A stretch of 64,000 bases of DNA from Candidatus Doudnabacteria bacterium (GCA_025450105.1 JANWIA010000024.1:229-64228); one strand, 5' to 3'; counted from the stretch's first letter, positions 6,730-16,124 are shown. The notes: generated from the sequence alone by a model not told the origin. Program-made: numbers and translations.

Positions 6730-9378
6730 ATGTCTATATTTGGAAAATTATTTGGGAGTTCAAACGAAGGCGTTGTTAAACAATTCCAAAAAGTTGTTGA
6801 CCAGATCAATGCACTCGAGCCGGAATTCGAAAAGAAATCCCAAGACGAACTAAAGCAATTAACCGCCAATTGGAAAACCGGTTTGGCGGATTTGGATTTA
6901 GGTGAAACCAAAGAATATTTGGAAAAGATTTTACCGGAAGCATTTGCCGCAGTGCGCGAAGCCTCCAAGCGAACCATTGGCCAACGCCACTACGACGTCC
7001 AGTTAATTGGAGGTATTGCCCTGCATCGCGGTAATATTTCCGAAATGCGTACTGGTGAAGGAAAAACATTGGTCGCAACTTTGCCACTTTACCTCAATGC
7101 CCTAACCGGCCGCGGTGCACATTTGATTACAGTCAACGATTATTTGGCGCGCTGGCAAGCTTCTTGGATGGGACAAATTTATTACTACTTGGGCTTAAGC
7201 ACCGCTTCGATTCAACACGAACAGGCATTTCTATACGACCAGACTTTCCAGCCGGAAGAGGAAGAGGTTAAACAAATCGAATCGCAAGTCCAAGGTTTAG
7301 TCTTGGATGTAAAACACATGCGGCCAATCAATCGCCGCCAAGCTTACGCCGCGGATATTACTTATGGCACCAACAACGAATACGGTTTTGATTATTTGCG
7401 CGACAACATGGTCGTTGACCCGTCACAGATGGTCCAGCGCGATTTGCATTTTGCTATTGTTGACGAAGTCGATTCCATTTTGATTGACGAAGCCCGCACG
7501 CCGTTGATTATTTCCGCGCCCGACACTGAACCAACAGATAAGTATTATGATTTTGCCAAGATAGTCGACAAGCTGGACGAAAAAACGGATTACAATGTCG
7601 ATGAAAAACACCGCGCCGCAACCTTAACTGAAGCGGGAATTGTAAGATTGGAACAGTTGCTGAATATCAAAAACATTTACGATAAGGACGGTATCACGAC
7701 CATCCACCACATTGAACAGGCGTTGCGCGCCCGAACTTTATTTAAGAAAGACATTAATTACGTTGTTAAGGACAACGAGATTATTATTGTCGATGAATTC
7801 ACTGGCCGGTTAATGTATGGCCGCCGCTATTCGGAAGGCTTGCACCAGGCGATTGAAGCCAAGGAAAATGTAAAGATCCAACAGGAAAGCAAAACGTTGG
7901 CGACAATCACTTTCCAAAATTATTTCCGTTTGTACCACAAATTGGGTGGCATGACCGGTACTGCCGAAACAGAAGCCGAAGAATTCCACAAGATTTACAA
8001 TTTGGAAGTCGTGCAAATCCCGACCAACAAACCGATGGTTAGGAAAGATTTGCCGGATCAGGTTTTTAAGAATGTCCCTGGAAAATTTGACGCGGTCATT
8101 CAGGCCATCAAAGAAAAATACAAAACGGGACAGCCGGTTTTGGTTGGTACTATCAGCATTGAAAAGAATGAAATTTTGTCGCAGATGCTGACCCAAGCAG
8201 GCGTGCCACACGAATTATTGAACGCCAAAAACCACGAACGTGAAGCGCAGATTATTTCCCAAGCCGGGCGTTTGGGCGCCGTAACCTTGGCAACCAACAT
8301 TGCCGGCCGTGGTGTCGACATTATTTTGGGCGGCAATCCGGCCGATCCTAAAGAACAGGAAAAAGTTAAAGAACTCGGCGGTCTTTCGGTAATTGGTACC
8401 GAACGTCATGAATCGCGCCGCATAGACAATCAGTTGCGTGGACGCGCTGGCCGACAAGGCGATCCAGGTTCGTCACAATTTTTCTTGTCCTTGGAAGATG
8501 ATTTGATGCGCTTATTCGGCGGTGATCGTATTGGCCGCATGATGCAAACTCTTGGAATTCCAGATAACCAACCAATCGAAGCCGGATTAATTAACAAATC
8601 CATTCAATCCGCGCAGGGAAAAATTGAAGGGCTGAACTTTGATACCCGTAAACACGTTTTAGAATATGATGATGTCATGAACAAACAGCGTGGCGTCATT
8701 TACAAAAAGCGCCGCGAGATTTTGTCGCCCGAAAAGGATTTGACCGAACAGGTGTTGCAGGCCATTGAACAGGAAATTGCCGATGTGGTTAATTTCCACT
8801 TTGGTCAGGAAACAATTGACCGCAAGGAAATTTTTGAGGCAATTAATACTATCATGCCAATTAAGCCCGAAGATGTTGGTCAGGATTGGGATGACATTCA
8901 AACCATCAATCATTTGGTAGAAATGGCGCGAAATGCTTTTGAACAAAAAAAGACCAAACTTGGTCCGGATACAATGAAACAGATGCAGAGGTTTGTCTAT
9001 TTACGGATCATTGACCAGTTGTGGCAACAGCATTTGGACACCATGGAACATTTGCGCGACTCTGTACGTTTGCGCAGTTACGGCCAACGCGATCCGTTGC
9101 AGGAATTTAAGCGCGAAGGGTTCCAATTATTTGAAAATCTTTTAAAGGAAGTTGATAGCCAGGTTGTGCATACTATTTTTAAAGTTGATGTCGTGCAGCA
9201 ACCGGTAACTCGGAGGCAAGAGTCAGGAGGCAGGAGTCAAGCACTGGCAACTGACGGCTCAGAAATCGGCCGCAATGACCCATGCCCTTGTGGTAGTGGT
9301 AAGAAATATAAACGATGTGGATTGTTACAAACCGAGGAGCATAAAAATAATCTTGTCAAGATGCAAGGAACTATTTGA
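6730..9378 (+). CDS. secA: Preprotein translocase ATPase SecA
   Basis: DEAD-like motor motifs and a C-terminal zinc-binding CPCGSGKKYKRC are present. The length is 882 aa. Confidence 0.95.
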   Translation: MSIFGKLFGSSNEGVVKQFQKVVDQINALEPEFEKKSQDELKQLTANWKTGLADLDLGETKEYLEKILPEAFAAVREASKRTIGQRHYDVQLIGGIALHRGNISEMRTGEGKTLVATLPLYLNALTGRGAHLITVNDYLARWQASWMGQIYYYLGLSTASIQHEQAFLYDQTFQPEEEEVKQIESQVQGLVLDVKHMRPINRRQAYAADITYGTNNEYGFDYLRDNMVVDPSQMVQRDLHFAIVDEVDSILIDEARTPLIISAPDTEPTDKYYDFAKIVDKLDEKTDYNVDEKHRAATLTEAGIVRLEQLLNIKNIYDKDGITTIHHIEQALRARTLFKKDINYVVKDNEIIIVDEFTGRLMYGRRYSEGLHQAIEAKENVKIQQESKTLATITFQNYFRLYHKLGGMTGTAETEAEEFHKIYNLEVVQIPTNKPMVRKDLPDQVFKNVPGKFDAVIQAIKEKYKTGQPVLVGTISIEKNEILSQMLTQAGVPHELLNAKNHEREAQIISQAGRLGAVTLATNIAGRGVDIILGGNPADPKEQEKVKELGGLSVIGTERHESRRIDNQLRGRAGRQGDPGSSQFFLSLEDDLMRLFGGDRIGRMMQTLGIPDNQPIEAGLINKSIQSAQGKIEGLNFDTRKHVLEYDDVMNKQRGVIYKKRREILSPEKDLTEQVLQAIEQEIADVVNFHFGQETIDRKEIFEAINTIMPIKPEDVGQDWDDIQTINHLVEMARNAFEQKKTKLGPDTMKQMQRFVYLRIIDQLWQQHLDTMEHLRDSVRLRSYGQRDPLQEFKREGFQLFENLLKEVDSQVVHTIFKVDVVQQPVTRRQESGGRSQALATDGSEIGRNDPCPCGSGKKYKRCGLLQTEEHKNNLVKMQGTI

Positions 9379-9387
9379 AATAAACTT

Positions 9388-10596
9388 ATGCCAAACAGTA
9401 ATCTCAGTAGTGCAAAAAACGCAAAGAACGATGAGTTTTATACCCAGTACAGCGATATTCAAAAAGAGATTGAAGCGTATTTGGAATACAACCCAGATGT
9501 ATTCCGCGACAAGGTGGTGTATTGCAACTGTGACGATCCATATGAGAGTAATTTTTTTCGATATTTTGTGCTCAATTTCAAGAAACTTGGATTGAAGCAG
9601 CTTATTACTACTAGCTATAAACCTTCACCCGTTGCCAATACACAATTGGGATTGTTGGGTGATGATAAAACTCTTACGAAATCAAAAGGCCGTCCTAAGT
9701 TAACCGCCAACAAGTTCATTATCAACGAAGTGCATGATATAGATGGTAATGGTGAGTTCAACTTAAAAGATGTCGCTAAGCAGTTAAAGGCTAACAAACA
9801 TAACGAATGGACACCACTAGAAGGCGAAGGCGACTTCCGTAGCGACGAGTGTGTTGACCTGCTTAACCAATCCGATATCGTGGTAACGAATCCACCGTTC
9901 AGTCTGTTTCGCGAATATGTTAAACAACTTTTTGATTATAAAAAAAAGTTTGTGATTATTGGTAATAAAAACAACGTGACATCGAAGGAAATTTTTCCCT
10001 TGTTTAAAGCCAATAAAATGTGGTCAGGAAGAACAGAATGGTCTGGTGGGTTGTGGTTCGTAACGATGGATGACGGTGATGTTGACAAGGTGATTGATGG
10101 TGTCAACATGAAAAATGTGCCTGCTATTTGGTTGACAAATCTCGACCACGGACGTCGTCATCAACCATTGCCACTTATGACAATGGAAGAAAATTTGAAA
10201 CACAGCAAACACAAAGAAATTAAAGGTAAAAAGGCATATGATAAATATGACAATTACGATGCTATAGAAGTGTCATTTACAGATGCTATCCCAAGTGATT
10301 ATGACGGCGTAATGGGTGTACCGATTAGTTTTTTGGACAAATATAATCCCGACCAATTTGAAATTGTTGGTATAACTTCTGGAAGAGATGAATTTGAAAG
10401 TAGGCCTTCAAAAAAGTACTTAAACCCCCAACAACATAATCCGAATGGCACCATAACGAATGGAAGTAAAGCAAATACTCGTGCGACAATTCTGTTAAAG
10501 AATATTCCTTCCGATATTTATTACACCGCAGATAATGCGAGCGGACCCCTTATGATTGCGTATGCGAGAATTTTAATTAAGCATAAGAAAAAATAA
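9388..10596 (+). CDS. N6-adenine DNA methyltransferase, EcoRI-methylase-like family
   Basis: The N-terminus reads KNAKNDEFYTQ and the catalytic NPPF motif (VVTNPPFSLF) is present. The gene starts 9 nt after the secA stop. Confidence 0.8.
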   Translation: MPNSNLSSAKNAKNDEFYTQYSDIQKEIEAYLEYNPDVFRDKVVYCNCDDPYESNFFRYFVLNFKKLGLKQLITTSYKPSPVANTQLGLLGDDKTLTKSKGRPKLTANKFIINEVHDIDGNGEFNLKDVAKQLKANKHNEWTPLEGEGDFRSDECVDLLNQSDIVVTNPPFSLFREYVKQLFDYKKKFVIIGNKNNVTSKEIFPLFKANKMWSGRTEWSGGLWFVTMDDGDVDKVIDGVNMKNVPAIWLTNLDHGRRHQPLPLMTMEENLKHSKHKEIKGKKAYDKYDNYDAIEVSFTDAIPSDYDGVMGVPISFLDKYNPDQFEIVGITSGRDEFESRPSKKYLNPQQHNPNGTITNGSKANTRATILLKNIPSDIYYTADNASGPLMIAYARILIKHKKK

Positions 10597-10597
10597 T

Positions 10598-11770
10598 ATG
10601 ATAACAACTTTAAAAACAAACATTACTGTTAAAGATATTTGCGAAGGGTTCGTTTATAACGAACTGGAAGGTAAAGGTCTATTCGGTTTGTCTGGCAAGC
10701 TCACTATTCAGCCGGAGTATCAGCGTAACTATCTATATAAAGATGAAAAGCGAGAAGCTAGCGTTATTGAATCAATTCTCAAAAAATATCCAATAGGTTT
10801 GATTTACTTTAATAAAGTAAATAAGGATAAATTCGAAGTTTTGGATGGACAACAACGCATTACTAGTATTGGACGTTTTGTAACTGGTAAATTTCCTATA
10901 AAAGATGAAAATGGTCACGAGCAATATTTCGATGGCATGGCCCCAGAGAAACGAACTAGAATTGAGAATACCAAACTACTGATTTACGAATGTGAAGGAG
11001 AAGAAGCTGATATTATGAACTGGTTTGAAACTATCAATATTGCCGGGATTCCACTGAATGAACAAGAAAAAAACAATGCGGTATATTTTGGACCATTCGT
11101 AACACATGCCAAGCAAGAATTTAGTAACAGTAAAAATGCGAACATTCAGAAGTGGAACTCTTATATAAATGGTACTGCTAGACGTCAGGATTTTTTGCAT
11201 ACAGCTCTAGATTGGGTAAGTGCTTCTAAAGGTATTACTATCCGTGAATATATGAGTAGTCATCGTCGCGCTACAGATATAAAGGAATTAAAAACTTACT
11301 TTAATAATGTACTGGATTGGGTTTCTGGAGTGTTTACCGATGTAGAGACTGAGATGCGTGGGCTTGAATGGGGACGTTTATATGAAAAATTTCACAAGAA
11401 AAATTATAATCCTGAAAAACTTTCAGGAGAAGTACAGAAATTCCTAACTGACAGTTTTGTAACAGATCGAAAAGGTATTTTTGAATATATCCTTGGTGGG
11501 TCTCAAGACAAAAAATTACTCAATATAAGAGTTTTCAGTGAAGCTGTAAAGAAAGACACGTACTCAAAGCAAACTGCCGAAGCCGAAAAAAAAGGAAAAT
11601 CAAATTGCTCGTATTGTGCTATTGGACATGATGCCAACAAGAGTAAGATTTGGAAACTTTCCGAAATGGATGCTGATCATGTCACAGCTTGGAGTAAGGG
11701 AGGTAAAACAGCAATAAATAACTGTGAAATGTTATGTAAACCTCACAATCGTGCAAAGGGCAACAGGTAG
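10598..11770 (+). CDS. DUF262 (ParB-like nuclease/NTPase) plus C-terminal His-Me finger (DUF1524/HNH-like) nuclease, GmrSD/SspE-like architecture
   Basis: The N-terminal half has IQPEYQRNYLY and LDGQQRITSI. The C-terminal half has CSYCAIGHD ... DADHVTAWSKGG ... NNCEMLCKPHNRAKGN. The gene starts 1 nt after the methyltransferase stop. Confidence 0.75.
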   Translation: MITTLKTNITVKDICEGFVYNELEGKGLFGLSGKLTIQPEYQRNYLYKDEKREASVIESILKKYPIGLIYFNKVNKDKFEVLDGQQRITSIGRFVTGKFPIKDENGHEQYFDGMAPEKRTRIENTKLLIYECEGEEADIMNWFETINIAGIPLNEQEKNNAVYFGPFVTHAKQEFSNSKNANIQKWNSYINGTARRQDFLHTALDWVSASKGITIREYMSSHRRATDIKELKTYFNNVLDWVSGVFTDVETEMRGLEWGRLYEKFHKKNYNPEKLSGEVQKFLTDSFVTDRKGIFEYILGGSQDKKLLNIRVFSEAVKKDTYSKQTAEAEKKGKSNCSYCAIGHDANKSKIWKLSEMDADHVTAWSKGGKTAINNCEMLCKPHNRAKGNR

Positions 11771-11805
11771 GTAACTAGGTCAGTAAATAAATTTTTATTT
11801 TTTTT

Positions 11806-12177
11806 ATGAAACAGTTGTTATTGGAAAAAGCGGTGTATTATAACCCAAATCAAGGTCCCGAGCACGGGACTGATGTTACGGATGATTTAAGAGCCCAAAT
11901 TGTAGACGGAGCGCTATTCTATAACGGTATTTATAATAATATATTTCCTGATAACTTTAAAAGAATAGACAAAAAATTAAGAATAGAGCTAACGTATAGA
12001 GGGAAAAAGTATCTTAAAATTTATTCGGAAAATGAAAAAATAAACTTACCAAGAGATCTTGGTTCAGTAATTAATAAGTGGTGGGAAAGTAATTGGTTTC
12101 AAGTTTTTGTTTTTGTAAGTGCTATTTTGGGTGTTTTGGGTTTTATTATTACAATAGTTGGGCTAGTAAATAATTGA
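11806..12177 (+). CDS. Hypothetical small protein with C-terminal transmembrane helix
   Basis: The 123-aa protein ends in a hydrophobic tail (WFQVFVFVSAILGVLGFIITIVGLV). It follows the nuclease and has an SD-like context. Confidence 0.5.
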   Translation: MKQLLLEKAVYYNPNQGPEHGTDVTDDLRAQIVDGALFYNGIYNNIFPDNFKRIDKKLRIELTYRGKKYLKIYSENEKINLPRDLGSVINKWWESNWFQVFVFVSAILGVLGFIITIVGLVNN

Positions 12178-12199
12178 AGTATTGTTTACTATAATACTA

Positions 12200-12228
12200 A
12201 AAACCGCAGCTCGATTGCCGCGGTTTTT
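12200..12228. terminator. Bidirectional intrinsic terminator
   Basis: The hairpin AAAACCGCAGC-tcgatt-GCCGCGGTTTT is flanked by an A-run and a T-run. Confidence 0.75.
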
Positions 12229-12252
12229 AAGTTTTTGTTTTGAACGATCGCA

Positions 12253-12561
12253 TTAGATTTTAGAAATAATGCTTGAATAACGGTCTGAGTTGTTTGGATT
12301 GTAATCTAGTCTAATATCAAAAGTATTGTTAGTTACTTCGATACAAGTAATTTCAGAGACATTAAATCTTCTCCAAGCGGGAATTGATCCAGTTTGGCTA
12401 TATCCTTCCGTTTGATAACCATCAAATAGTGTTTTTCCAGTAGAACTTACATAGACTATGTATGGGTCGATGGTTCGACTCAAAGAATTTTCGTAATTTA
12501 CAATAATACTTTTTTGGTTTTCTATTGCAAATTGAATCTCGTTCTCAAATTTGTAATTCAT
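12253..12561 (-). CDS. Small WYL-like domain protein (hypothetical)
   Basis: The 102-aa protein has a WYL-like pattern (DPYIVYV ... AWRRFNVSEITCIEV). An SD-like AAAGGAG lies upstream. Confidence 0.4.
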   Translation of the reverse strand: MNYKFENEIQFAIENQKSIIVNYENSLSRTIDPYIVYVSSTGKTLFDGYQTEGYSQTGSIPAWRRFNVSEITCIEVTNNTFDIRLDYNPNNSDRYSSIISKI

Positions 12562-12772: not shown

Positions 12773-12986
12773 GCCCAAGTATTGAAATGGTATAATTACT
12801 ACATAAGTTCATTCAAACTGAATAGTGACAATCAAAGTATTGCTTTAACTCGGTGTCTTTTTATTGATATTTACTTACTTATTTAGTTCTCGCGTGTTCG
12901 ACAGGCCACAACAAATTACAGAAGTTTGGGATGATCAACACCCAAGAACGTAAAAAGTTAATACCAAATAAATAGACAAAAGAAAA

Positions 12987-13019
12987 GAGCCCCATCCAGT
13001 TGCTGGATGGGGCTCTTTT
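12987..13019. terminator. Bidirectional intrinsic terminator at the left edge of the GC-rich island
   Basis: A perfect hairpin AGAGCCCCATCCAG-ttgc-TGGATGGGGCTCT is flanked by A-runs and T-runs. Confidence 0.8.
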
Positions 13020-13040: not shown

Positions 13041-13262
13041 TTAGGCTGCGGCTTTGAGGGCGACGCCGCAGCAGAAACAGAACTTGAAGCTTGGATCTGC
13101 GGCCCACACGTGGTGGAACTCTTCGCAGCGCTCCAGTGCCGAGAACTTGGGATCGACTTCGGTGCCGCACTCCTTACAGAAGCGGCACGAGATCGAGTCG
13201 TCCTTCCTCGGCTTCTCCACGCGTTGGTGCAGGGCTACGTTGGCGCAGGTTGTTGCTGGCAT
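13041..13262 (-). CDS. Small Cys/His-rich protein (73 aa), hypothetical
   Basis: An ATG start follows a GAAGGA SD. The protein contains CRFCKECGT ... CEEFHH ... CFCCG. It lies 18 nt downstream of the 52-aa ORF in a GC-rich context. Confidence 0.5.
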   Translation of the reverse strand: MPATTCANVALHQRVEKPRKDDSISCRFCKECGTEVDPKFSALERCEEFHHVWAADPSFKFCFCCGVALKAAA

Positions 13263-13280
13263 TGCATCCTTCTTTCCTTG

Positions 13281-13439
13281 TTACGCGGCGGTGATGCCAA
13301 GACGCTTGGCCTTCTCGAGGTTCTTGTCGTGGTCGTGGTTGGTGACGCACTCGCAGGTGCCCTTGAGGCAGGCTTTGAGCCGCGCTCGCCAAATGGCAAG
13401 CCTGAGTGTTTCCAGGTCGAGCTTCTTAAGATGGCGCAC
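13281..13439 (-). CDS. Small protein (52 aa, GTG start), hypothetical
   Basis: An AAGGAGG SD lies 8 nt upstream of GTG. The protein reads VRHLKKLDLETLRLAIWRARLKACLKGTCECVTNHDHDKNLEKAKRLGITAA. It is absent from the ATG-only ORF track. Confidence 0.5.
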   Translation of the reverse strand: MRHLKKLDLETLRLAIWRARLKACLKGTCECVTNHDHDKNLEKAKRLGITAA

Positions 13440-13463
13440 TTTTCTATCCTCCTTGAATGACGG

Positions 13464-13495
13464 ATTATACTAGCATTTACTGGCCAAATTGTCAA
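13464..13495 (-). promoter_or_regulatory. Strong sigma70-like promoter (TTGACA-N17-TGcTAGTAT/TATAAT) driving the minus-strand small-protein operon
   Basis: Read on the minus strand, the sequence is TTGACAatttggccagtaaatgcTAGTATAAT. It is followed by an SD and the GTG start. Confidence 0.65.
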
Positions 13496-13532
13496 TCCAA
13501 GCGTAGAATAGGGATGAAGCAAGAGGTGGGTT

Positions 13533-13754
13533 ATGCCAACAATGACGCTTCGTCTCGTTACGGAAAAAGGAGAAGAGACCATTCGGGAATATCGCTGCGA
13601 TTGGCCGGGTCTTTGCCAGGACCTTGCAGTGACCTCTGTCGGTCTCAGTGAATTCGGAACGCTGATAAGCTTTTGCAGTAACCATCTGAAGATGTATGCC
13701 GAGCAGGGGGAGTCAGAAGGAGGTTTGGGTGCCCGAGATTACTATGACGATTGA
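13533..13754 (+). CDS. Small protein P1 (73 aa), paralog of P2, with a C-x-C/C-x2-H metal-binding-like motif
   Basis: An SD-like AAGAGGTG lies 4 nt upstream. The protein contains YRCDWPGLC ... FCSNH. Confidence 0.5.
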   Translation: MPTMTLRLVTEKGEETIREYRCDWPGLCQDLAVTSVGLSEFGTLISFCSNHLKMYAEQGESEGGLGARDYYDD

Positions 13755-13914
13755 AGTTGATGGGCAAGTGGATCGGATAAGTAAATATTTCTGCGATTCG
13801 CGGAATTGTCTGGAAGAGGCGAGTGAACTACATGTAATTGCGAGCCTGCGGCAAAGGGTTTTTCTTTGCCCCAAACACGCGCTCGAGCTCTATCACAGAC
13901 AGATGAGAAAATGA
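13729..13914 (+). CDS. Small protein P2 (61 aa, GTG start), paralog of P1
   Basis: A GAAGGAGG SD lies 5 nt upstream of GTG. The protein contains YFCDSRNC ... LCPKH. It overlaps the end of P1 by 26 nt, consistent with translational coupling. Confidence 0.5.
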   Translation: MPEITMTIEVDGQVDRISKYFCDSRNCLEEASELHVIASLRQRVFLCPKHALELYHRQMRK

Positions 13915-13949
13915 GGCTCAGCCAGCAATGGTTGGGCCTTTCTCTTAGG

Positions 13950-14090
13950 CAAAATAAAAAGGCGACTACGGTCTTCTGTAGTCGCCCTCTCGTGGAGTTG
14001 TGTTAGTGTCCGATGTGCTTCGCTGGTTGCCCTTATGGGTCCATGAATTCGTACATAGGCTTTCCTCCTGTCCTGGATAAATGATAAACC
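13950..14090 (-). ncRNA. Compact promoter-to-terminator unit (about 130 nt) carrying only a 7-codon ORF (MYEFMDP); candidate small RNA or leader peptide
   Basis: The promoter is at 14081-14109. An AGGAGG SD lies 7 nt upstream of the ATG at 14056 and the stop is at 14033-14035. The terminator is at 13951-13986. Confidence 0.35.
13951..13986 (-). terminator. Intrinsic terminator (hairpin GGCGACTACGG/CTGTAGTCGCC plus T-run on the minus strand)
   Basis: On the minus strand the hairpin is followed by TTTTTATTTT. It also lies just after the P2 stop on the plus strand. Confidence 0.7.
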
Positions 14091-14109
14091 TATGTAATAA
14101 ATTTTGCAA
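14081..14109 (-). promoter_or_regulatory. Sigma70-like promoter TTGCAA-N17-TATCAT
   Basis: Read on the minus strand, the sequence is TTGCAAaatttattacataggttTATCAT. Confidence 0.5.
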
Positions 14110-14120
14110 AAGCTCATTTT

Positions 14121-14190
14121 GTCATTGCGAGGAGCGGAGCGACGTGGCAATCTTCTAGAATAAGATTGCTTCGCTTCGCTCGCAATGACA
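14121..14190. repeat. Imperfect 70-nt palindrome built from two inverted copies of the motif GTCATTGCGAG...GCAATCTT
   Basis: The outer 11-bp arms are GTCATTGCGAG and CTCGCAATGAC. The inner arms are GCAATCTT and AAGATTGC. The motif recurs at 20963-20995. Confidence 0.6.
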
Positions 14191-14207
14191 GGGTAAGCAA
14201 AGTAAAA

Positions 14208-14237
14208 AGGGTCTCACCGTGTGGTGGACCCTTTTTT
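14208..14237 (-). terminator. Intrinsic terminator (GGGTC...GACCC hairpin plus T-run) overlapping the stop of the Zn-ribbon gene
   Basis: The sequence reads AAAAAGGGTCtcaccgtgtggtGGACCCTTTTTT. It is bidirectional. Confidence 0.7.
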
Positions 14238-14375
14238 GGCAGCAGCCAGTTCTTTGACTTCTGCCTTGTTCTTAAATTCCCGTTTGCATTTGCTGCACTG
14301 GACTGTGTTGTCCCAGAAGACAACCTCGCCGCCACATGTGGGGCAAGGTGTTTCGAGCCTGCCGTAATCATCCAT
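14214..14375 (-). CDS. Small zinc-ribbon protein (53 aa), hypothetical
   Basis: An AAGGAG SD lies 5 nt upstream of ATG. The protein reads MDDYGRLETPCPTCGGEVVFWDNTVQCSKCKREF and so on. Confidence 0.5.
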   Translation of the reverse strand: MDDYGRLETPCPTCGGEVVFWDNTVQCSKCKREFKNKAEVKELAAAKKGSTTR

Positions 14376-14384
14376 TTCTACTCC

Positions 14385-14564
14385 TTAACGAAAGATCGTG
14401 AATCGGGCGATTGCTAGGAACATGGTTCCAAAGATTAGTCCCGTTAGCAACCGCTGCCTGAAGCTTGAACAATCAAATTGCTTTTCGGCAATGTTCACAA
14501 CAAGCTGCCAGAGAAGCGCGTTCAGGCTTAGGAACAACAGCACACGAAGCGTTTCATCCGACAC
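14385..14564 (-). CDS. Small hydrophobic/membrane protein (59 aa, GTG start), hypothetical
   Basis: A GAGGTAGGTG SD is present. The stop overlaps the SD of the downstream Zn-ribbon gene. The protein is hydrophobic (LRVLLFLSLNALLWQLVV ... LLTGLIFGTMFLAIARF). Confidence 0.45.
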   Translation of the reverse strand: MSDETLRVLLFLSLNALLWQLVVNIAEKQFDCSSFRQRLLTGLIFGTMFLAIARFTIFR

Positions 14565-14578
14565 GATTCACCTACCTC

Positions 14579-14740
14579 TTACTTTATGGCTTGGTTGAGG
14601 GTTCTTGGTTTTTCCTTGTACCCTCCACAATCAACGCAGTCTTCACGTTTGCAGAGACGGATTGAGTTCGGGTTCTTTGGATCCAAGCGATAGTGGTCGC
14701 CTTCGGCGTGGCCGCATTCACAGTATTTCGCGAATTTCAA
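14579..14740 (-). CDS. Small zinc-ribbon protein (53 aa, TTG start), hypothetical
   Basis: An AAGGAGG SD lies 6 nt upstream of TTG. The protein reads MKFAKYCECGHAEGDHYRLD ... CKREDCVDCGGY. Confidence 0.45.
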   Translation of the reverse strand: MKFAKYCECGHAEGDHYRLDPKNPNSIRLCKREDCVDCGGYKEKPRTLNQAIK

Positions 14741-14841
14741 TTTTATCCTCCTTGATGAGAAAGCGTATCACGGATTGCTATGCAAATCAAGCTTCTATGG
14801 CGTGCAGGAATTCCAAAGTATATAATATTCAAGGACATTTT

Positions 14842-15672
14842 ATGGACACACTTTTTTCGATTATTACGCCAACCTACAACCGCGCCTACATTTTGCCAAA
14901 AGCAATTGAATCATTACTGGCCCAGACCTATAAGAATTGGGAAATGATAATTATTGATGACGGCTCAACCGATAACACCAAGGAAGTTGTCGGGCGGTTT
15001 AATGATCCGCGCATCAAATATTTTTATCAGAACAACCAAAAGCAATGCGCGGCCAGGAACAAAGGTTTGGAATTGGCGCAAGGTCAATGGGTTTGCTATT
15101 TGGACAGCGACAACGAATTATTTCCGAACTATTTGGAAACTATGCTGGCAGAAATTCAGGCAGATCCCAATGTGGTTTTGTTGTTGCCCAAGGGCCGGCA
15201 CACAAAAGAGCTTTACGAAAATGGCAAGCTGATTAAGTCGGTGGATGACGCGGAAAATTTTCCCGAAACGCTAACACTCAAAGATTTAGCGGACAGGAAA
15301 TTGCATGCTGATATGAATGGATCAATGCACCATCGAAAAATAATTTCCGATGGGATACGCTTTGACCAAGCGGCCAGTCCATTGGAAGATTGGGATTTAT
15401 TTTTATCGATCGGCCAGAAATATCCGGATAATTTTGTTTATGTGACTAAGGAACTCTATCATTATGTGCAGCGTCACGGCGGCGACGGATTAGTAGCAAA
15501 TACCGGTTTCCGGAATTTAGCAAAGACTTACGAATATATTTTTAATAAACACAAGGCCAGTAGTCTTCTGCAAGGGCAAACCTGGTATCCTCGGAAGGTT
15601 GAGGAATATAACCGCTTGGCTGAGGAATCGGAAAACGGATCGAGTGTGGGGCTCCACGAGAAAACTATATGA
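14842..15672 (+). CDS. Family 2 glycosyltransferase
   Basis: The N-terminus reads FSIITPTYNRAYILPKAIESLLAQTY ... IIDDGSTD. I chose the ATG at 14842 behind a TATAAT. The track's longer ORF from 14605 runs through the minus-strand small genes and I do not accept that extension. Confidence 0.75.
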   Translation: MDTLFSIITPTYNRAYILPKAIESLLAQTYKNWEMIIIDDGSTDNTKEVVGRFNDPRIKYFYQNNQKQCAARNKGLELAQGQWVCYLDSDNELFPNYLETMLAEIQADPNVVLLLPKGRHTKELYENGKLIKSVDDAENFPETLTLKDLADRKLHADMNGSMHHRKIISDGIRFDQAASPLEDWDLFLSIGQKYPDNFVYVTKELYHYVQRHGGDGLVANTGFRNLAKTYEYIFNKHKASSLLQGQTWYPRKVEEYNRLAEESENGSSVGLHEKTI

Positions 15673-16124
15673 AATACTTTCTCTTAAAATCGGAACCGGG
15701 CAGTTATTCAATCGACGACCTTAAGCGGGACAAAGAAACCGTTTGGACATCTATCCGTAATTATCGTGCCCGGAATATTATGCGCGACGAAATGCAGCCA
15801 GGTGATTTATTTTTATTTTATTATTCCATGTCTGACCCAACTGGTGTTGCCGGAGTTGGGAAAATTTTAGAAGTCGGGTTGCCAGACGTGACCGCGCTGG
15901 ATAAGAAGGATGATTATTACGATCCCAAAGCGACTAAGGAAAAGAATCCTTGGGTAGCACCGAAAGTTGGGTTTGTAAAAAAGTTTAAACGCATAGTAAC
16001 TTTGGATGAAATAAAAAAAGACAAGCAATTTGCCAATATGGTTCTTCTCAAAATTCCTAGACTGTCTGTTCAACCAGTTGAAGAAAAAGTGTATAATCTA
16101 ATAGTGAGGATGGGTAATAATTAA
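15669..16124 (+). CDS. EVE (PUA-like) domain protein
   Basis: The N-terminus is EVE-like (MKYFLLKSEPGSYSIDDL ... WTSIRNYRARNIMRDEMQPGDLFLFYYS). The gene overlaps the GT2 stop by 4 nt. Confidence 0.7.
   Translation: MKYFLLKSEPGSYSIDDLKRDKETVWTSIRNYRARNIMRDEMQPGDLFLFYYSMSDPTGVAGVGKILEVGLPDVTALDKKDDYYDPKATKEKNPWVAPKVGFVKKFKRIVTLDEIKKDKQFANMVLLKIPRLSVQPVEEKVYNLIVRMGNN

Follow-up and report, generated by a model that had tools for sequence, protein, structure and literature searches.

A 64,000-nucleotide (nt) stretch of DNA from a Candidatus Doudnabacteria bacterium (GCA_025450105.1, JANWIA010000024.1:229-64228), hereafter the window, was analyzed around two genes located immediately downstream of secA; all coordinates are those of the whole window. 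The first gene encodes a 402-amino acid (aa) EcoRI-family adenine DNA methyltransferase (the methylase, M) and the second a 390-aa protein with DUF262 and HNH domains (the nuclease, R). The open reading frames (ORFs), the 9-nt gap between secA and M (AATAAACTT) and the single nt between M and R, as described in an initial annotation of this DNA, all agree with the ORF map. The segment 9388-11770 is very likely a self-contained, horizontally mobile, two-gene restriction-modification (R-M) module belonging to a family already catalogued as "type II." Features of the module and of the preceding gene are given below with the basis for each; numbers prefixed with L denote the loci to which the window was compared.

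6730-9378, plus strand: secA (ORF map)
9388-10596, plus strand: M, EcoRI-family (gamma-class) N6-adenine DNA methyltransferase, 402 aa (Pfam, PADLOC, motifs)
9628-9822, plus strand: variable insert 1 of M (aa 81-145), of two to three alternative types (mean pairwise identity 0.41)
9889-9900, plus strand: NPPF catalytic motif IV of M (aa 168-171; T167, N168, P170 and F171 invariant in the partner methylases and genuine M.EcoRI)
10363-10566, plus strand: hypervariable, recombinationally exchanged cassette of M (aa 326-393; gap in DNA homology, diversity of types, quartet test)
10598-11770, plus strand: R, DUF262 (ParB/Srx-fold) plus HNH nuclease, 390 aa, restriction component (PADLOC, Pfam)
10703-11089, plus strand: DUF262/GmrSD_N domain of R (aa 36-164; Pfam, invariant columns)
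11606-11767, plus strand: HNH nuclease domain of R (aa 337-390) with a CCCH zinc site (Pfam, PHROG HNH endonuclease families)

Domain Composition of the Methylase and Nuclease

M is matched by the Pfam family EcoRI_methylase (PF13651; E=4.7e-119) and, over its full length, by the PADLOC model MTase_II PDLC03297 (E=1e-94). The KNAKNDEFYTQ sequence and TNPPFS are both found in the protein, and its initial assignment to the M.EcoRI-like, gamma-class N6-adenine methylases is upheld. Genuine M.EcoRI, encoded on E. coli plasmids, is ~43% identical to M over aa 15-335, and the motifs DEFYT, CDDP, GDGDFRS and TNPPFSLF are intact in both proteins. Since M keeps each of these shared motifs, it should methylate N6 of adenine in DNA. 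GAATTC is the site of M.EcoRI, the family prototype; by family analogy the target of M is probably also a site with an AATT core, although the variable cassette described below makes the target uncertain. Insert 1 of M falls into two main types, with one singleton, and its variation tracks that of the M N-terminus (rho 0.79). A second variable stretch, at ~10027-10128 (aa ~214-247), differs among genuine M.EcoRI, the methylase of L010 and the lineage of the window. The AlphaFold model of M is of moderate quality (predicted local distance difference test, pLDDT, 67.6) and retrieved nothing at E<=0.001 with Foldseek; sequence searches of the PDB with M and R returned nothing meaningful.

R is matched by the PADLOC "Type II restriction enzyme" model REase_II PDLC03418 (E=3.6e-87), with residues 7-389 aligned to model positions 6-371 of 372, and none of the 13 PADLOC matches listed for R at E<=0.1 is named GmrSD, BrxU or SspE. 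In Pfam scans of the two proteins, EcoRI_methylase in M and GmrSD_N/DUF262 in R (E=7e-20) were recovered as the initial annotation had anticipated. The C-terminal half of R is also of the predicted His-Me-finger type, but the expected DUF1524 domain (no Pfam match at E<=0.1) is replaced by a zinc-finger HNH domain (PF01844; E=2.8e-7, 31 bits against a cut-off of 21.4). QPEYQRN (aa 38-44) and DGQQR (aa 83-87, nt 10844-10858) are invariant in the DUF262 domain of the R family, as are C337, C340, D360, H361, N375, C380, H383 and N384 in the HNH domain. The DGQQR pocket of DUF262/ParB-type proteins binds nucleoside triphosphate, and the ParB/Srx-fold nucleotide-binding domain is known from CTP-switch clamps and from modification-dependent nucleases. 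The AlphaFold model of R is likewise moderate (pLDDT 69.5); its top Foldseek ranks are BrxU, CTP-bound ParB, Noc, PadC, SspE and sulfiredoxin, all weak and non-significant (best E=0.019). Close relatives of R are annotated as "McrA" by the Joint Genome Institute (JGI).

Linkage, Limits and Distribution of the Gene Pair

The R family is large: at least 8000 candidates were scored, all of them significant. The best 120 relatives are 71-92% identical to R and come from Patescibacteria, Anaerolineae, Kazan, Margulisbacteria and Bacteroidales; relatives that are 65-92% identical are found in bacteria, an archaeon, plasmids and a phage. Gene linkage was scored in 32 loci (26 from reference genomes and six others), to which L117 and L118 were added through the closest relatives of M. 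An EcoRI-family M lies upstream of R on the same strand for all 28 full-length R genes of the first 32 loci and, with L117 and L118 included, in 30/30. The distance from the M stop to the R start is between -4 and +9 nt in nearly all loci. The initial annotation had held that its interpretation would fail if the DUF262 protein occurred elsewhere without a methylase; no intact solo R is present in the 32 loci, where the cases lacking M are truncated by contig ends (L027, L030) or are decayed 3' remnants (L031, L032). Annotated M-then-R pairs are carried by a 9-kb Moraxella plasmid, large E. faecium plasmids, a Flavobacterium phage, an L. pentosus plasmid and actinobacterial plasmids. The coupling of a DUF262 nuclease to an adenine methylase, considered unusual in the initial annotation, is therefore commonplace: a single PADLOC model spans R, the family has thousands of members, all 30 scored are paired with M, and there is a precedent in REBASE, where a "DUF262 domain-containing protein" is given as the type II restriction endonuclease of an RTCAGG system in Bifidobacterium (PMC13091528).

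The limits of the module were drawn from DNA homology to relatives. The closest relative, in groundwater contigs, has an R that is 92% and an M that is 78% identical to those of the window and occupies a different genomic site, flanked by a gene for a TIR-like protein of 270 aa on one side and a DUF5677 gene, followed by Phd/ParE, on the other. DNA homology between the window and this relative is restricted to 9382-10365 and 10567-11769, i.e., it extends from 6 nt ahead of the M start codon through the R stop codon and is interrupted only within the cassette. The mobile unit is thus exactly two genes, M and R. Other copies of the module are flanked by different, often defense-like, cargo.

Base composition agrees with the initial description of the pair as AT-rich: the GC fraction is 0.380 for M and 0.356 for R against 0.430 for the whole window (0.450 for secA), and it falls to 0.312 and 0.311 in the two small ORFs that follow. 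Intervals of 1.2 kb with GC <=0.37 make up 3.8% of the total, and every one of them lies inside 9.9-13.2 kb. Neither M, R nor either of the small ORFs was found downstream of secA in any of 80 other secA loci from metagenomes. Low GC, absence from these loci, the other site in the closest relative and the confinement of homology to 9382-11769 all bear out the proposal of an acquired two-gene operon. The further proposal that the pair was inserted after secA is in keeping with its absence from the 80 loci. The nearest sampled secA genes are only 47-61% identical to that of the window and synteny is not kept, and the limits of the putative insertion were therefore taken from the homology above and not from an empty site. 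No flanking direct or inverted repeats, att sites, tRNA genes or other RNA genes were found around the island.

Several of the compared loci depart from the simple arrangement. In L031 (6001-6222) and L032 (5749-6129), the last 43-73 aa of the R HNH domain persist with no methylase nearby, fused in L032 to an unrelated N-terminus; these are dead copies of the module. M and R are separated by genes for a Trypsin_2 protease, RhuM and a GIY-YIG protein in L117 (1474-4061), by a gene for a 470-aa protein of no known type in L118 (1413-2825) and by a DUF2130 gene in L020 (4635-5999). A recurrent third gene between M and R was considered and rejected, the three inserts being mutually unrelated; since M and R are split by unrelated cargo in three relatives, the junction seems to be an insertion hot spot, by analogy with the nesting of defense genes in type I R-M loci. 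In L036 (1934-2980; Lactiplantibacillus pentosus plasmid pBGM48-4), motif IV of the methylase reads TNEPFSLF, not TNPPFSLF, and judging from this substitution the enzyme may be inactive or altered; its partner nuclease is an intact, more distant DUF262 protein, ~40% identical to R. L026, from a metagenome-assembled genome (MAG) of Candidatus Absconditabacterales, also carries the module, with the ORFs of both genes broken when read with translation table 11; this lineage is reported to use UGA as a sense codon.

An Exchangeable Cassette in the Methylase

The segment of M at aa 326-393 is bounded by the conserved anchors NP[DE]QFEI.G and Y.RI.IKHKK, and the gap in DNA homology to the closest relative (10366-10566) falls within it. 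Between these anchors, at least 13 mutually unrelated versions were found in 21 loci, and at least 14 in a set of 120 proteins, each sharing at least 68% identity with the M of the window; the lengths of the versions range from ~17 to 65 aa. R is better conserved than M: pairwise identities average 0.72 in R, 0.56 in the M core and 0.20 in the C-terminal segment of M. One version is common to the Moraxella plasmid, the Flavobacterium phage, bacteria of the candidate phyla radiation (CPR), Algibacter and a Woesearchaeon, whose M cores are only ~50-60% identical. The version in the window has a counterpart, in the comparison of M-R loci, in a Flavobacterium MAG (71%) and a faint one in E. faecium, and nowhere else. 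Relative to genuine M.EcoRI, the methylase of L010 is 42% identical in its backbone and 74% (23/31) in its cassette and tail; the cassette of the window is 17% identical to that of M.EcoRI past the anchor.

Cassette identity is uncorrelated with the identity of the rest of M (rho 0.03-0.20) and with that of R (rho -0.07). A quartet test was made with two pairs of loci: the window and L004, in which R is 92% identical and the cassettes differ, and L018 and L003, in which R is 88% identical and the same two cassettes are present. The numbers of positions that follow lineage, cassette and a control partition were as given here.

R, whole protein: 68 lineage-following, 1 cassette-following, 0 control
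M, aa 1-325: 65 lineage-following, 1 cassette-following, 0 control
M, aa 326-393: 0 lineage-following, 21 cassette-following, 0 control

Recombination has swapped the cassette between backbones, and R shows no corresponding change. A mutual-information scan for R residues that track the M cassette was unconvincing, with the maximum reached in 72 of 2000 shuffles. The cassette is predicted to fold as a beta-rich element (block pLDDT 78, 84, 63, 87, 84 and 60) and is conserved within a type, and it is therefore not a junk linker. The target-recognition domain of gamma-class methylases is C-terminal to motif VIII, and the cassette falls in the region where this domain is expected.

The histories of the two genes are also discordant as wholes. 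The nearest R (92%) is paired with an M that is 78% identical and has another cassette, and the nearest relatives of M (85-89%, with the same cassette as the window) are paired with R proteins only 68-71% identical; from this discordance, whole-gene reassortment of M and R seems to occur within the family.

Neighboring Genes, Competing Explanations and the Source of Specificity

Two small ORFs and a hairpin lie between the module and the end of the low-GC island.

11806-12177, plus strand: 123-aa ORF with a C-terminal transmembrane (TM) helix, a neighbor outside the module (singleton, absent elsewhere)
12199-12229: hairpin with flanking A- and T-runs, in the gap between the convergent TM and WYL-like ORFs (sequence aaaaaCCGCaGCtcgattGCcGCGGttttt)
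12253-12561, minus strand: stand-alone WYL-domain protein of 102 aa, lacking a helix-turn-helix (HTH), a neighbor outside the module (family-level Pfam WYL match)

The TM helix of the 123-aa protein spans residues 100-118 (VFVFVSAILGVLGFIITIV; mean Kyte-Doolittle hydropathy 2.87), at the C-terminus as the initial annotation had placed it, and the ORF has no family match in any library scanned. The hairpin is likely, from its sequence, to be a bidirectional terminator. The 102-aa ORF is a real gene, with 520 representatives at E<=1e-3 in a full HMMER scan, most of them ~100 aa long. Its description as WYL-like holds for the family, 27/46 scanned members of which match Pfam WYL (PF13280), and not for the ORF alone, which is below threshold (E=0.022); the family profile also matches the WYL domain of a solved protein, 7qfz (E=0.004). 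The protein is a bare WYL domain, and no HTH or other DNA-binding domain was found in it. Its family resembles the WYL defense regulators (BrxR, CapW and PafBC-type) in the WYL domain itself; the ORF differs from them in lacking HTH and WCX domains and in not being conserved beside this or any other recognizable defense operon in the loci examined.

Further downstream, the block 13041-14750 has a GC fraction of 0.505 against 0.430 for the window and no long ORF, and is edged by a perfect 17-bp hairpin terminator at 12983-13019. It contains several ORFs of 53-73 aa with CxxC pairs and only sub-threshold zinc-ribbon matches; for one of these ORFs, PHROG gives a faint hit to a Lar-like restriction-alleviation protein (E=0.004). 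The block may be an element that was inserted separately. Some 4 kb downstream of the M-R pair, 15669-16124 (plus strand) encodes an EVE-domain protein (PF01878; E=8e-47); its start lies 4 nt before the end (15672) of the ORF for a family-2 glycosyltransferase, with which it is apparently co-transcribed. The EVE domain has a PUA-like fold that reads modified bases.

The preferred reading, in which M and R form a mobile R-M pair, must be weighed against three others. The initial annotation grouped the TM and WYL-like genes with M and R, which would give a four-gene system with a TM effector or sensor and a ligand-sensing WYL regulator. Adjacency and a common low GC (0.31-0.38) are consistent with such a system, as are the control of some defense loci by WYL regulators and the family-level match to 7qfz. 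However, the other M-R loci examined all lack both genes and have different cargo at the equivalent positions, both proteins are singletons at 90% clustering, and DNA homology to the closest relative ends at the R stop codon (11769), before the TM ORF; the WYL protein, at 102 aa and with no HTH, is moreover convergent and beyond the terminator hairpin. A four-gene system is therefore extremely improbable, and the two ORFs are best seen as unrelated cargo of the neighboring island, outside the R-M system. It is also highly improbable, if somewhat less so, that the locus is a decaying or inactive remnant, e.g., an orphan or silent methylase. Decayed copies of the module do exist (L031, L032), there is no site avoidance in the window, and an EcoRI-family M with an adjacent restriction endonuclease in Prevotella intermedia gave no detectable methylation (PMC5608340). 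In the window, both ORFs are full length and keep all the invariant catalytic residues of the family, M and R are 78-92% identical to those of intact relatives, and the 1-nt spacing is preserved.

The remaining explanation concerns the polarity of R. Instead of being blocked by N6-methyladenine (m6A), R could be stimulated by the m6A of the host to attack incoming DNA, following the logic of SspE and GmrSD; in a type IV variant, R would be aimed at other phage modifications and M would be separately useful. SspE is stimulated by phosphorothioate. An N-terminal GmrSD_N domain with an intact DGQQR, the presence of BrxU and SspE among the top, though weak, fold matches and the "McrA" label on close relatives are all compatible with modification dependence, and the high conservation of R and its indifference to the M cassette are what a nuclease that reads some generic feature, and not a sequence, would be expected to show. 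Yet a nuclease that cuts m6A-containing DNA would kill a host that carries the linked methylase. Linkage in 30/30 loci at tight, probably coupled spacing is what protective methylases typically show, and the occurrence of the pair on small plasmids fits an R-M pair capable of post-segregational killing; the REase_II match (3.6e-87), the lack of any GmrSD, BrxU or SspE match among those listed at E<=0.1 and a C-terminal HNH in place of DUF1524 point the same way. Modification-dependent action by R is accordingly judged unlikely.

Several points nonetheless count against an R-M pair of the methylation-blocked kind. A literature search returned no paper on this pairing and no characterized member was found, and the REBASE enzyme that seeded the PADLOC REase_II model was not identified. 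Palindromes with an AATT core are not depleted in the window (ratio 1.02 for AATT, 1.20 for GAATTC), the region over which site avoidance was computed; such a measure is uninformative for a recent arrival. The structure models of both proteins are moderate and their fold matches non-significant. To our knowledge, the characterized DUF262 nucleases (GmrSD, BrxU and SspE) are all modification-dependent or modification-stimulated, i.e., of the opposite polarity.

Comparison with known systems helps to place the pair. It resembles the putative type II systems of PADLOC and REBASE in the full-length matches of both proteins, the M-then-R order, the tight spacing and the separate polypeptides; the copy in the window is set apart from that family only by its location after secA and its own M cassette. 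The family in turn differs from textbook type IIP systems in an R with a ParB/Srx-fold nucleotide-binding domain and an M with a shuffled cassette. A characterized REBASE prototype was sought in type II reviews and in a fold classification, and none is named there; AATT cutters, MluCI among them, are treated as EcoRI-like mosaics and not as HNH enzymes. With the EcoRI system itself the pair shares an M of the same Pfam family, ~43% identity, the same catalytic motifs and, in L010, an M.EcoRI-type C-terminal cassette. In contrast to EcoRI, a PD-(D/E)xK enzyme, R consists of DUF262 and HNH domains; the genuine "type-2 restriction enzyme EcoRI" is encoded upstream of its methylase whereas here M precedes R, and M is ~75 aa longer than M.EcoRI, with two inserts.

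R has the N-terminal DUF262 domain with DGQQR and the C-terminal His-Me-finger nuclease of the GmrSD/BrxU/SspE proteins, and BrxU is its top, weak structural match. Its inclusion in that group, as first proposed, does not hold: R has HNH PF01844 and not DUF1524, is 390 aa long against roughly 560-770, drew no such match among those listed by PADLOC and without exception has a cognate adenine methylase linked to it, implying that its action is blocked by methylation, whereas GmrSD, BrxU and SspE stand alone or are associated with bacteriophage exclusion (BREX) or Ssp systems and require no cognate base methylase. Type III systems (Mod/Res, e.g., EcoP15I) also have a methylase gene first and a tightly coupled nuclease gene second, with a shuffled variable segment in the methylase and a conserved, non-co-varying subunit that joins an NTPase to a nuclease. 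R, however, has neither a superfamily 2 (SF2) helicase ATPase nor PD-(D/E)xK, and M is not a beta-class Mod, so that the likeness, drawn by analogy, is one of evolutionary pattern and not of membership. The locus lies outside the EcoRI system, the GmrSD/BrxU/SspE family and the type III systems.

Under the preferred reading of a methylation-protected R-M pair, M would place a methyl group on N6 of adenine within a short site and so mark host DNA as self. R would be produced from the same transcript, probably by translational coupling, would bind nucleotide through the DGQQR motif of its ParB/Srx-fold DUF262 domain and would cut unmarked DNA with its zinc-stabilized HNH active site, methylation blocking this action. 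Strict linkage and gene order, with probable coupling and carriage on small plasmids, fit such a combination of a protective methylase and a putatively methylation-blocked nuclease. Loss of M while R persists would be lethal, so that the pair would double as an addiction cassette; such behavior would help to account for how widely it has spread, to plasmids, a phage and many phyla.

The exchange of the M cassette bears on which protein sets specificity. If the cassette alters specificity, R, which does not change with it, would have no fixed specificity of its own and would be directed or licensed by M, in the manner of Res and Mod in type III systems. It is a tentative proposal, held with rather less than even confidence, that the family is not classical type II but a two-component, type III-like R-M class, that the cassette sets the DNA target and that R is a specificity-free, nucleotide-switched effector recruited or licensed by M at unmethylated sites. 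The intact nucleotide-binding DUF262 domain and the swapping of the cassette while R fails to compensate (68 of its positions follow lineage and 1 follows cassette) argue indirectly against the simple picture in which R recognizes the sequence of M independently of M and needs no NTP. Targeting of R by M is allowed by the cassette pattern but is not proved by it. That R reads the cut site itself is a serious contender, also held at something short of an even chance. A further alternative is that the cassette leaves specificity unchanged; the members of the family would then all be isoschizomers, and the diversity of cassettes would call for a different explanation.

The locus itself adds one copy to a mobile R-M cassette that is already very common, and its interest lies in the family, which has thousands of copies in bacteria, archaea, plasmids and phages and no member of which appears to have been studied. 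The family joins a ParB/Srx-fold nucleotide-binding domain to a protective methylase; M bears the mark of specificity shuffling and R stays unchanged, and the family may work otherwise than textbook type II enzymes. We know of no structure of an EcoRI-type methylase; should M not direct R, the family would still offer naturally occurring methylase variants with which to map the reading of DNA by these enzymes. If R is directed by M, the swap of a cassette of roughly 25-65 aa would re-target the whole system with the nuclease untouched, and R would represent a new mechanistic class of restriction enzyme, compact and re-targetable by cassette exchange.

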